From contig NW_027139666.1 in the NCBI RefSeq assembly GCF_035084215.1, forward strand, positions 992,001-1,056,000: DNA of 64,000 nucleotides, in the 5' to 3' direction. This document shows positions 55,755 through 61,537 of this stretch, one piece after another. The DNA comes from Heptranchias perlo (Eukaryota). Each line of letters begins with the position of its first letter. The stretch's first letter is position 1. The position numbers and the translations under genes were made by a program. Under the pieces are notes generated by a model, which had not been told where the DNA came from, ran no database searches, and saw only the letters and a list, made by a program, of their open reading frames with translations.

Positions 55755-56530
55755 AACTCCACAATATACTGAAAAAAATAAACACAAAGGCTCTTTTAAG
55801 AGCCACCCACAGTCTCTCTGAAGACGCTGTACCGATACCTCTGGATGGAATCATTTTACGGTAGATAAGATAGTTTGACACTAACTGTCTCTCTATAACT
55901 TGTCCTTTTGTGATTTCTCTTGATATCGGGAAGATTCTCACAATAACTGCCGGGTATAATCTGTGTGTCGATGTTCAATTTACAGCCAATAAACAAAAAC
56001 GTGTCCCTGAACCTCTCATTTCAGTTCATTTTCCGCCCCTTCCCCCGCGTCTGACACTTCAGAGCCGTTTTCAGGCGGTGGATTCGAGTTCGGTTATTTC
56101 TTTCTCCTTCTCACGTTTGTTTGTTAATTATTCGGGACAAAATGAGGCTTTATTCCGGCCCGATTGAAAGCGAACGGAGAATGAAGCGGGTTGAAACAGA
56201 TTCTGGAAGTTGTGACGAGAAATGTGGAATAACAGAGTAAAAGATGAGATGTCTAAATATTTGCTTTTACGCGAAATTATTTACTAAATCCGCTTCTTGT
56301 GTTACAAATATATTGGCGGGCTTTTCAAATTTCAAAAAAACGGTTCTGGTCGGTATTTTCCGCCCTTTTCTCATTGCCGGCTATTGATTGGTGAATAAAA
56401 CAGCCCTCTGATTGGTTTAACGAACAGCTCAATGAGGTTGAGAACACATGGACCAATCACAAGTGCCCCCACTGCAGTCGTCCAGAAAGTATAAGAAGGG
56501 CGAGTGCGGGAGGATTTCTTCATTCTTTGT

Positions 56531-56623
56531 AAACAATTTTACAACACCAAGTTATAGTGCAGCAATTTTATTTTAAATTCACAAGCTTTCGGAGGCTACC
56601 TCCTTCCTCAGGTGAACGATGTG
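56531..56623 (-). mobile_element. Penelope pseudo-LTR terminal fragment
   Basis: Minus strand contains CCTGAGGAAGGAGG, identical to the end of 35683-36760, followed by AATAAA and the element end. Confidence 0.8.
56578..56616 (-). ncRNA. Minimal type-I hammerhead ribozyme (Penelope type)
   Basis: UUCAC-CUGAGGA-A-GGAGG UAG CCUCC-GAAA-GC-UU-GUGAA: stem I, core, stem II, helix III reduced to palindromic AAGCUU. Confidence 0.85.
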
Positions 56624-57012
56624 AGGAGCCGAGCAATGCGGAGGGAGCGTCCGATAAAAGGCGGGATTTCAGAGCGCTGAGAACAGCTGAGAGGAGCCGA
56701 GCCGAGCGGAGGGAGCGTCGGATAAAAGGCGGGATTTCAGAGAGCTGAGAACAGCTGAGAGGAGTGGAGCGGAGGGAGCGTCCGATAAAAGGCGGGATTT
56801 CAGAGCGCTGAGAACAGCTGAGAGGAGCCGAGCCGAGCGGAGGGAGCATCCGATAAAAGGCGGGATTTCAGAGCGCTGAGAACAGCTGAGAGGAGCCGAG
56901 CGGAGGGAGCGTCCGATAAAAGGCGGGATTTCAGAGCGCTGAGAGGAGCCGAGCGGAGGGAGCGTCCGATAAAAGGCGGGATTTCAGAGCGCTGAGAAGA
57001 GCCGAGCCGAGC
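56624..57012 (+). repeat. About six 50-68 bp GC-rich monomers in the CR1 5'UTR
   Basis: Repeats of AGGAGCCGAGCGGAGGGAGCGTCCGATAAAAGGCGGGATTTCAGAGCGCTGAGAACAGCTGAG. Confidence 0.93.
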
Positions 57013-57329
57013 TGCGACCGAGTTCGAAGTGACGTCAGGAATCAGATCGGGACGCGACACAGGGGAGGCACCTGATTGGTGAGTAGGTTCAGGTGAGTAT
57101 TTCTCCTGATCTACAGTAACTGAAGTAAAAGGAAAGGGAAGGTCTGCAGGTCTTATAGGAAGTAGCGTTTATTTTTTAGTGAATCAAGGTCCCTAGTGTA
57201 GTTAACATTCTCTAAATTGAGAACAATTTAAAGGAGTAAACTCCTTAAAGGGAGTGGTAAGTAGTTTTTCTTTCCTTTTTTTTTCTCTTGACATTGTAGT
57301 TGTTCTTAAGCTAATTTAAGGGTTACGTC

Positions 57330-58265: not shown

Positions 58266-61214
58266 TGTGGCAGGGGGATGGGAACCGATGCACGAAGTCA
58301 GATGGAAATAAAGTGGTGACAGAAACAAAAGGCAGTAAGGGAGATTGTACAGAACATGACCGGACAGATGTTCTGAGAAAGCAGGGCAAAGACCAAGGGA
58401 AGTCTAGATTAAACTGCATTTATTTCAATGCAAGAAGTCTGATGGGCAAGGCAGATGAACTCAGGGCATGGATGGGTACATGGGACTGGGATGTTATAGC
58501 TATTACTGAAACATGGCTAAGGGAGGGGCAGGACTGGCAGCTCAATGTTCCAGGGTACAGATGCTATAGGAAAGATAGAGCAGGAGGTAAGAGAGGAGGG
58601 GGAGTTGCGTTCTAGATTAGGGAGAACATCACGGCAGTAGTGAGAGGGGATATATCCAGGGGTTCTCCCACTGAGTCCATATGGGTAGAACTGAAAAATA
58701 AGAAGGGAGAGATCACTTTGATAGGATTGTACTACAGACCCCCAAATAGTCAACGGGAAATTGAGGAGCAAATATGTAAGGAGATTACAGACAGCTGCAA
58801 GAAAAATAGGGTGGTAATAGTAGGGGACTTTAACTTTCCCAACATTGACTGGGACAGCCATAGCATTAGGGGCTTGGATGGAGAGAAATTTGTTGAGTGT
58901 ATTCAGGAGGAATTTCTCATTCAGTATGTGGATGTCCCGACTAGAGAGGGGGCAAAACTTGACCTCCTCTTGGGAAATAAGGAAGGGCAGGTGACAGAAG
59001 TGTTAGTGAGGGATCACTTTGGGACCAGTGATCATAATTCCATTAGTTTTAAGATAGCTATGGAGAAGGATAGGTCTGGCCCAAAAGTTAAAATTCTAAA
59101 TTGGGGAAAGGCCAATTTTGATGGTATTAGACAGGAACTTTCAGAAGTTGATTGGGAGAGTCTGTTGGCAGTCAAAGGGACGTCTGTTAAGTGGGAGGCT
59201 TTCAAAAGTGTGTTAACCAGGGTTCAGGGTAAGCACATTCCTTATAAAGTGAAGGGCAAGGCTGGTAGAAGTAGGGAACCTTGGATGACTCGGGAGATTG
59301 AGGCACTAGTCAAAAATAAGAAGGAGGCATATGACATGCATAGGCAGCTGGGATCAAGTGGATCCCTTGAAGAGTATAGAGATTGCCGGAGTAGAGTTAA
59401 GAGAGAAATCAGGAGGGCAAAAAGGGGATATGAGATTGCTTTGGCAGATCAGGCAAAGGTGAATCCAAAGAGCTTCTACAAATACATAAAGGGCAAAAGG
59501 GTAACTAGGGAGCGAGTAGGGCCTCTTAAGGATCAACAAGGTCATCTATGTGCGGAACCACAAGAGATGGGTGAGATCCTGAATGAATATTTCACATCGG
59601 TATTTACGGTTGAGAAAGGCATGGATGTTAGGGAACTTGGGGAAATAAATAGTGATGTCTTGAGGAGTGTACATATTACAGAGAGGGAGGTGCTGGAAGT
59701 CTTAACGCGCATCAAGGTAGATAAATCTCCGGGACCTGATGAAATGTATCCCAGGACGTTATGGGAGGTTAGGGAGGAAATTGCGGGTCCCCTAGCAGAG
59801 ATATTTGAATCATCCACCGCTACAGGTGAGGTGCCTGAAGATTGGAGGGCAGCAAATGTTGTGCCTTTGTTTAAGAAGGGCGGCAGGGAAAAGCCTGGGA
59901 ACGACAGACCAGTGAGCCTGACATCTGTAGTGGGTAAGTTGTTAGAGGGTATTCTGAGGGACAGGATCTACAGGCATTTGGAGAGGCAGGGACTAATTAG
60001 GAACAGTCAGCATGGTTTTGTGAGAGGAAAATCATGTCTCACGAATTTGATTGAGTTTTTTGAAGGGGTAACCAAGAATATAGATGAGGGCTGTGCAGTA
60101 GACGTGGTCTACATGGACTTCAGCAAAGCATTTGACAAGGTACCGCAAGGTAGGTTGTTACATCAGGTTAAATCTCATGGGATCCAAGGTGAGGTAGCCA
60201 ATTGGATACAAAATTGGCTTGACGACAGAAGACAGAGGGTGGTTGTAGAGGGTTGTTTTTCAAACTGGATGCCTGTGTCCAGCGGTGTGCCTCAGGGATC
60301 GGTGCTGGGTCCGCTGTTATTTGTTATTTATATTAATGATTTGGATGAGAATTTAGGAGGCATGGTTAGTAAGTTTGCAGATGACACCAAGATTGGTGGC
60401 ATTGTGGACAGTGAAGAAGGTTATCTAGGATTGCAACGGGATCTTGATAAATTGGGCCAGTGGGCCGATGAATGGCAGATGGAGTTTAATTTAGATAAAT
60501 GTGAGGTGATGCATTTTGGTAGATCGAATCGGGCCAGGACCTACTCCGTTAATGGTAGGGCATTGGGGAGAGTTATGCAACAAAGAGATCTGGGAGTTCA
60601 GATTCATAGCTCCTTGAAAGTGGAGTCACAGGTGGATAGGGTGGTGAAGAAGGCATTCAGCATGCTTGGTTTCATTGGGCAGAACATTGAATGCAGGAGT
60701 TGGGATGTCTTGTTGTAGTTGTACATGGCATTGGTGAGGCCACACTTGGAGTACTGTGTACAGTTCTGGTCACCCTATTATAGAAAGGATATTATTAAAC
60801 TAGAAAGAGTGCAGAAAAGATTTACTAGGATGCTACCGGGACTTGATGGTTTGACTTACAGGGAGAGGTTAGACAGACTGGGACTTTTTTTCCCTGGAGA
60901 GTAGGAGGTTAAGGGGTGATCTTATCGAAGTCTATAAAATAATGAGTGGCATAGATAAGGTAGATAGTCAAAATCTTTTCCCAAAGGTAGGGGAGTCCAT
61001 AACGAGGGGGCATAGATTTAAGGTGAGAGGGGAGAGATAAAAAAGGGTCCAGAGGGGCAATTTTTTCACTCAAAGGGTGGTGAGTGTCTGGAACGAGCTG
61101 CCAGAGGCAGTAGTAGAGGCGGGTACAATTTTGTCTTTTAAAAAGCATTTGGACAGTTAAATGCTTAAGATGGGTATAGAGGGATATGGGCCAAGTGCAG
61201 GCAATTGGGACGAG
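58265..61214 (+). pseudogene. Disrupted CR1 ORF2
   Basis: TAG at 58613-58615 and 60716-60718, +1 frameshift in a T-run near 60885-60891, further stops downstream. Confidence 0.92.
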
Positions 61215-61294
61215 CTTAGTGGTATAAACTGGGTGACATGGATATGTTGGGCAGAAGGGCCTGTTTCCATGTTGTAACTTCTATGATTCTATGT

Positions 61295-61483
61295 GGAAAA
61301 CAATGACCGCGGCTTAATTCCCGCCCGTTTACAGGCAGATCAGAGAATGAACCGGAATGTGAAACAGCTTGAGATTTGAGCTGAGGAGTTGGAAATAATG
61401 GAGATTATAAAGAGAGGGGGTTCTTAAATTGCTTGAGGGAAATGAGATTTTCATGAAACTGTTATTTGATGACCTGAAATTGG
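61295..61483 (-). repeat. Inverted duplicate of the H3-H4 intergenic segment 63240-63427
   Basis: Reverse complement matches CCAATTTCAGGTCATCAAATAACAG...CCCCGGTCATTGTTTTCC with few mismatches. Confidence 0.93.
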
Positions 61484-61537
61484 TCATTGTTTCCCCGGTC
61501 ATTCATTCTTTGTGAAAGTGTTTGTGAGATTGTTGAA

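Follow-up and report, generated by a model that had tools for sequence, protein, structure and literature searches.

The window considered here is a 64-kb stretch of Heptranchias perlo DNA (contig NW_027139666.1, positions 992,001 to 1,056,000; positions given without a contig refer to this stretch) that carries a histone array of H2B, H2A, H3, H4 and H1 genes with their 3' stem-loops. In the leader of one of its H2A genes lies a composite of about 5 kb, in which a 12-bp target-site duplication encloses a short arm of a Penelope element, a CR1-type long interspersed nuclear element (LINE) and a piece of nearby spacer DNA copied in inverted orientation. The duplicated sequence, TTCATTCTTTGT, stands at 56519-56530 and 61502-61513 on the plus strand and is single in the uninterrupted H2A leaders at 7003 and 31061, as a first-pass annotation made from the letters alone had noticed, and in that at 39202. 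Upstream of the left copy, the H2A promoter (56453-56494, plus strand, with CCAAT at 56453-56457 and TATAA at 56490-56494) is homologous to the intact leaders and is now separated from its open reading frame (ORF).

The Penelope piece (56527-56623, minus strand) is an arm of the pseudo-long terminal repeat (pLTR), 98-100% identical to dispersed copies, and its start overlaps the left duplication by the final 4 nt, TTGT from 56527. It had been taken for a Penelope terminus, but it lacks the tail of about 36-40 nt that marks one class of arms and represents an internal, tail-less start. As in endonuclease-positive (EN+) Penelope-like elements, the pLTRs of this family are in inverted orientation with an optional tail at one end, and the target site is duplicated upon insertion. 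A parent copy (L099) has a 726-codon open frame with an RVT_1 domain, while GIY-YIG scored only on a related fragment of the window (35926-36495, within a Penelope ORF end at 35926-36498), and did so weakly (E 6e-4, under the curated cut-off). One 26-nt motif of the arm has 65,356 exact matches in the genome. Inside the arm, 56577-56617 on the minus strand is predicted to fold as a minimal type-I hammerhead with a conserved core, and the putative ribozyme has the extra base between positions 9 and 10.1 (before stem II), the G10.1-C11.1 pair and the palindromic 15.2-16.2 of stem III that are listed for minimal hammerheads of Penelope elements in the accessible part of PMC4209133. The intact hammerhead of the first-pass annotation is upheld by this fold but not by Rfam, which detected none at gathering or E-value thresholds. 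The hammerhead, internal to the arm and in antisense orientation to H2A, is carried along as a passenger and accounts for neither arm end; in a lizard element, self-cleavage is reported to be protein-assisted and dispensable for insertion (PMC11167929).

The CR1 (56624-61293, plus strand) interrupts the arm and is bounded by ATGTG on both sides, as had been described. The left copy (56619-56623) is Penelope sequence and likely the CR1 target duplication; the right copy, at 61291, forms with the following GAAA the final bases of the Penelope arm (61291-61299). Penelope sequence resumes beyond the CR1, to 61299, and since the family sequence runs on past ATGTG with GGAAAT, the bases directly 3' of the CR1 tail are Penelope's. 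The last of these, GGAAA at 61295-61299, are common to the arm end and to the captured DNA, and this microhomology agrees with the earlier proposal that the arm switched to nearby histone-cluster sequence.

From GGAAA onward, 61295-61483 is the reverse complement of the H3-H4 spacer at 63240-63427, with 97.4% identity over 189 columns and four private changes, against 89.4% for the paralogous spacer at 8745-8932. Its plus-strand template precedes H3, and the insertion site is 1.7-1.9 kb away. The inverted relationship reported in the first pass is thereby confirmed, and the piece proved to be histone spacer, part of neither the Penelope nor the CR1 element. The nearest spacer sources are the composite's own units, with 4, 5 and 5 differences; sister units differ at 6 positions or more. 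Behind the inverted copy, at 61482-61503, the two expected forward re-copies of 63410-63427 are present, beginning at 61482 and 61493 and joined via 2-nt overlaps. The second is exact to 63410, whereas the first can be read either as an exact 63414-63424 without microhomology or as 63414-63427 minus one T. Sealing by microhomology, as first proposed, is supported by the short microhomologies on the right side. Short copies with microhomology of 1-2 nt or more, as in templated insertion by polymerase theta, are likewise present, with an overlap-free alternative for one join. At the right duplication the in-register overlap is 2 nt, and a reading with 5 nt (TCATT) was rejected. The far end of the captured piece, 63240-63246, coincides with what we take to be an initiator (Inr)-like motif ahead of the H3 promoter, a possible start site for a divergent transcript.

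Captures of nearby DNA, for which a search had been suggested, recur in this family. Among the first 87 listed arms ending in GGAAA we recognized 76 events and examined 68, leaving out 8 tightly paired double arms; for the first 27 events only 1.5 kb of flank was inspected, so farther sources may be missed. In 4 of the 68 (L188, L192, L238 and L243) the duplication encloses a locally derived copy of 20 bp or more, and in a single case, L192, one of 100 bp or more; the source of this 133-bp capture is 719 bp away. Beyond that sample, L048 is a further capture, and L052 holds a 377-bp inverted copy (100% identical, source 1.1 kb away) and a forward snippet of 32 bp, its two arms having entered the source at one and the same point; the L052 source has no Inr-like motif. 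The simplest reading of the window is that it resembles L052, both break ends having copied the spacer plus strand near 63427. Capture of a double-stranded fragment is possible, though it takes more steps than a single single-stranded template. At L238 (C1:105.08M), about 180 bp of G-rich DNA, for which 4 kb of surroundings contain no source, come between the arm and a 64-bp inverted local copy, and a 13-bp duplication encloses them all.

The family as a whole suggests how such arms may be made. In a sample of 101 arms covering the first 4.9 Mb of contig C1, the left match end fell 1-14 nt from the anchor in 51 arms and 37-41 nt from it in 49, with one intermediate; the window arm belongs to the first, tail-less class. 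Short double-arm insertions, drawn from this positional sample and the GGAAA set, combine one tailed and one tail-less arm in 56 of 57 cases, the remaining one having two tail-less arms. (The first 26 dispersed loci, chosen by likeness to the window's flank, were excluded from frequencies, as was an automatic filler analysis, unreliable in satellite DNA, from counts.) Duplication lengths, called in 54, were 11 bp (3), 12 bp (34), 13 bp (10), 14 bp (6) and 15 bp (1), so that the 12-bp duplication ascribed to Penelope in the first pass has the modal length of the family. Tail-less starts overlap the target by a mean of 1.63 nt, against 0.61 nt with permuted start registers (0 of 5000 permutations). 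The flanks of the 34 sites with 12-bp duplications are dyad-symmetric (r 0.67, about zero at shifts of 1-3), and remain so after removal of two positions biased by construction (0.62, P 0.0002). Several insertions chosen by likeness to the window's flank (L050-L054, L058 and L067) occupy one equivalent site in copies of another repeat, with duplications of 12-13 bp where called.

Paired arms share alleles: at the most variable column only 2 of 40 pairs are discordant, where a random pooled draw would give 15.6. Both arms therefore derive from one template, and an origin from two different RNAs, which we had considered, is rejected, leaving double priming of one RNA or a snap-back. According to the latter, the second arm would be a snap-back copy of the first cDNA, and the capture an R2-like snap-back onto nearby DNA carried out by host repair. 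Allele sharing suits this explanation as well, and the accessible text of PMC11371274 documents snap-back after full-length cDNA for R2. It should, however, yield pairs of two tail-less arms, which are nearly absent (the 1 of 57) even though single tail-less arms with 11-13-bp duplications are common. For this reason we favour double priming and regard snap-back as unlikely, though it is the strongest of the competing explanations. The family thus likely cuts both DNA strands and builds onto both ends. One joint reading, offered tentatively and at somewhat less than even odds, is that a dimeric, two-fold symmetric protein cuts a palindromic site 12 bp apart, that both ends are extended on one short RNA from the pLTR promoter, one from the tail start and the other from the internal start, and that, if one of the two primings fails, the free ends take single-stranded DNA or RNA within about 2 kb as their template, the H2A leader being a recurrent target. 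The pattern matches the behaviour of the lizard Poseidon protein, a predicted dimer that in vitro cuts and extends both strands and starts reverse transcription at two sites bounding the tail (PMC11167929).

The CR1 was probably inserted after the Penelope event. It has an esterase-type ORF1 (GDSL, 57330-58265, plus strand), an ORF2 with APE and reverse transcriptase (RT) domains, tandem repeats at the 5' end to about 57022 and a short-repeat 3' tail; the label CR1 rather than L2 is carried over from the earlier annotation and presumed correct. Structurally the element is full length, as had been claimed, but its ORF2 is broken. Duplications of at least 5 nt flank 5 of 20 other full-length copies of the family, against 3 of 380 mismatched pairs, so the ATGTG copies fit the later CR1 insertion that had been proposed; a fish LINE makes 5-bp duplications in culture, according to the accessible part of PMC4245944. 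If instead reverse transcription had placed the CR1 in the repair intermediate of the Penelope event, ATGTG would have been duplicated by repair and not by a second insertion. This is improbable in our judgement, more so than snap-back, although several observations lean towards it: the CR1 is present in all four copies of the composite (see below) and no CR1-free copy exists in the assembly, the CR1 adjoins the switch point, and changes common to all copies are similarly frequent in the CR1 (7/1726) and the host flank (7/1304). Moreover, at L166 (C1:4.846M) a tail-less arm ending at the run-off point described below is joined head-to-head to a 5'-truncated CR1 of the family. Against co-insertion, Penelope itself supplies the bases between the CR1 tail and the spacer copy, this CR1 normally makes duplications of 5-6 nt, the captured piece carries more private changes (4/189), and one exact pattern for a CR1 tail before an opposite arm had 0 matches genome-wide. 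Transduction by the CR1 in either the 3' or the 5' direction was rejected, the junctions occurring only in the duplicated unit, and this Penelope arm was found at none of 28 other CR1 5' ends (at two of which repeat arrays ran past the stretch inspected). At L166, where no duplication was found, two retroelements may have inserted together. Another CR1 of this family (98%), truncated at its 5' end, lies at 49712-53575; at its 5' junction 17 nt of its own start are folded back, and about 10 bp of target were lost.

The arm had been thought to result from a stall after about 90 nt. Its end is instead a family-wide hot spot tied to the TATA box of the pLTR. The better fit is that synthesis ran off the 5' end of a short RNA initiated in the pLTR, which is probably, on this sequence evidence, what the arm end reflects. 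Removal of 9 segmental duplicates from the positional sample left 92 arms, 31 of which cross the pLTR TATA box and 61 of which are shorter; end points were measured against 31 natural references, since a single reference is confounded by subfamilies. Of the short arms, 21 of 61 stop 28-32 nt downstream of the TATA start, adjacent 5-nt bins holding 5 each, and the window arm stops at 30 nt. The peak lies 89-90 nt from the anchor where the TATA box is nearer and at 95-97 nt where it is farther. Genome-wide, 994 arms exit right after GGAAA and 1904 read on, and among the first 100 arms listed, counted by hand, 78 have an added A after the GGAAA end. Judged by eye, what we presume to be an Inr-like motif sits at the run-off position. 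Four loci (L181, L183, L191 and L244) have A-runs added past the run-off end; at L181 they occur on both arms and meet as an A-run facing a T-run. TATA plus Inr are described for a rotifer pLTR in the accessible part of PMC3846280. The stall, in which a long Penelope RNA would be copied prematurely or 5'-truncated up to a structural barrier near the hammerhead before the same capture took place, could account for truncations all along the arm (40 of the 61 short arms end outside the peak) and for a peak just 5' of hammerhead helix I. Yet the peak tracks the TATA box across subfamilies, not the helix, and the frequent extra A suits run-off, which makes a stall quite unlikely, slightly more so than co-insertion of the CR1.

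The composite is present as four diverged copies of a duplicated unit: A in the window, and B, C and D at 10.52M, 2.2M and 5.2M of contig C1275. In an assembly search, the left junction occurred in four copies and the right junction in exactly three; copy D (L098, C1275:5.19M) has lost its entire H2A ORF, along with the captured DNA and the tail of the CR1, to a later deletion of about 700 bp. The truncated CR1 at 49712-53575 is found in copies A and B and not in C and D. An assembly artefact is conceivable in a repetitive histone array whose right junction was neither covered nor bridged by public contigs (5 runs of one sample, maybe from another individual or species), but we regard it as hardly credible, because identical junctions recur in three to four copies on two contigs with flanks diverging by 0.2-3.5% and with copy-specific later events. 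Among public sequencing runs, no RNA run was listed with the locus, and the best DNA run contained 0.44 of its words.

Taken together, we give a probability of roughly 0.7 to the reading in which Penelope cut both strands, a short RNA was copied to its end, the break was patched from local sequence and the CR1 probably came later. A GIY-YIG nuclease would have made cuts 12 bp apart at a favoured site of approximate symmetry. The arm, whose start is internal and tail-less and overlaps the target by 4 nt, would then have been made by target-primed reverse transcription, and run-off on a short pLTR RNA would account for its end 30 nt downstream of the TATA start. The second end, which would usually gain a tailed arm, did not do so here; rather, the GGAAA end of the arm would have paired with the spacer plus strand at 63427 and been extended by 188 nt, while the other end primed twice nearby, giving the snippets of 11-13 nt, until a 2-nt overlap joined both. 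As template, single-stranded DNA is more likely than a divergent RNA from the H3 promoter, and the polymerase may have been either the RT or polymerase theta. The CR1 would have entered at ATGTG, and the unit was afterwards duplicated to four copies.

Several points weigh against this reading. The template end at 63427 hinges on one of the two parses of the first snippet. The spacer of unit D differs from the insert at 7 positions and that of non-carrier sister units at only 6, and the template could have come from a neighbouring unit. The lack of a CR1-free copy, the position of the CR1 within 5 nt of the switch point and the direct arm-to-CR1 joint at L166 all count here, as do the 40 of 61 short arms that end outside the peak; the RNA 5' end itself is deduced from arm end points alone. 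For Penelope of D. virilis, PMC2377424 reports an internal promoter without a TATA box, and the initiation site reported in PMC11167929 is non-homologous to the cut DNA, whereas overlaps of 1-4 nt are seen here.

Published Penelope/Poseidon elements share with this family, as far as the accessible text of PMC8557442 and PMC3846280 goes, the inverted pLTR arms, an optional end tail of 30-40 nt, the pLTR hammerhead and short target duplications. Unrelated sequence between solo pLTRs inside a duplication, its source untraced, is reported for rotifer Penelope in the available portion of PMC3846280. The strict pairing of tailed and tail-less arms, the dyad-flanked 12-bp mode, the ends at TATA+30, the traced local source of a capture and the repeated hits on a histone leader are not described in the accessible parts of these two papers and PMC11167929. 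The available text on L1 (PMC11702581) likewise describes templated genomic inserts, inversions and reciprocal-end processing at retrotransposon-made breaks, but with an APE nuclease, poly-A priming, inversion within one mRNA and somatic experimental clones, while the Penelope captures are fixed germline copies. In R2, too, the 3' end of a full-length cDNA primes on its own cDNA or nearby target DNA; its target is a single specific site, however, and the accessible part of PMC11371274 describes neither a tailed/tail-less pair nor a 12-bp duplication. A literature search over titles and abstract openings, with subscription papers and supplements outside its scope, returned nothing on these statistics or on histone-leader targeting. 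End joining by polymerase theta leaves iterative templated inserts, with short repeated copies joined by 2-nt overlaps. Here, by contrast, a retroelement cDNA serves as one primer, and the template is located at a distance of 1.7-1.9 kb.

The H2A leader was hit more than once. Three further independent Penelope insertions occupy the same site: the full-length element L099 (C3:141.44M) and a double arm of opposite polarity (L273, C49:20.99M), both with the same 12-bp duplication, and a piece of about 1 kb from another subfamily (L175, C1456:2.449M), which shares the left junction and is flanked by a 9-bp version of the duplication. In two surveys of 60-nt leader segments by exact patterns, all 6 histone-linked matches fell at this site (5 of 6 matches in one survey, where the sixth did not read as a histone leader, and 1 of 1 in the other). 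Under a matrix trained on 34 non-histone sites, the insertion site scores highest among the 80 positions of the leader and falls within the window's top 0.6%. With about 45,000 events in 3.25 Gb and 531 genome matches to the H2A-leader motif, roughly 0.007 events are expected at one position, or about 0.2 when the matrix score is included, against the four observed. Accessible chromatin at promoters may contribute in addition to the sequence preference.

For the H2A gene itself, the insertion places the ORF (61538-61927, plus strand) about 5 kb from its promoter. The ORF is open but substituted at otherwise conserved residues (L33H, A60S and I62F in copies A, B and C; that of D is lost), and it differs from two intact copies by 5-7 synonymous and 6-7 non-synonymous changes, compared with 11 and 3 between the intact pair. 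Judging from these changes, this H2A copy is likely a dead pseudogene, and the suggestion that such events shuffle histone regulatory DNA finds no support here, because the copy looks dead. Elsewhere in the window, a tRNA gene lies at 38569-38640, and 39229-40258 holds a degenerate H2A followed by the 3' fragment of a different LINE, 98% identical to 24737-25316.

The origin of the inverted, tailed structures of Penelope-like elements is called open in PMC11167929 and in the accessible text of PMC8557442, and the family regularities make the question testable. For the in vitro system, our samples predict the stagger length, the half-site preference, the paired starts, the use of one template and the run-off position. 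As a single locus the composite is of modest interest, and the main value lies in these family-level regularities. With its nested CR1, the composite is a by-product that this abundant Penelope family yields only rarely, and it shows that insertions of the family can copy local DNA and that a histone leader has been struck repeatedly, gene copies likely being killed as a result.

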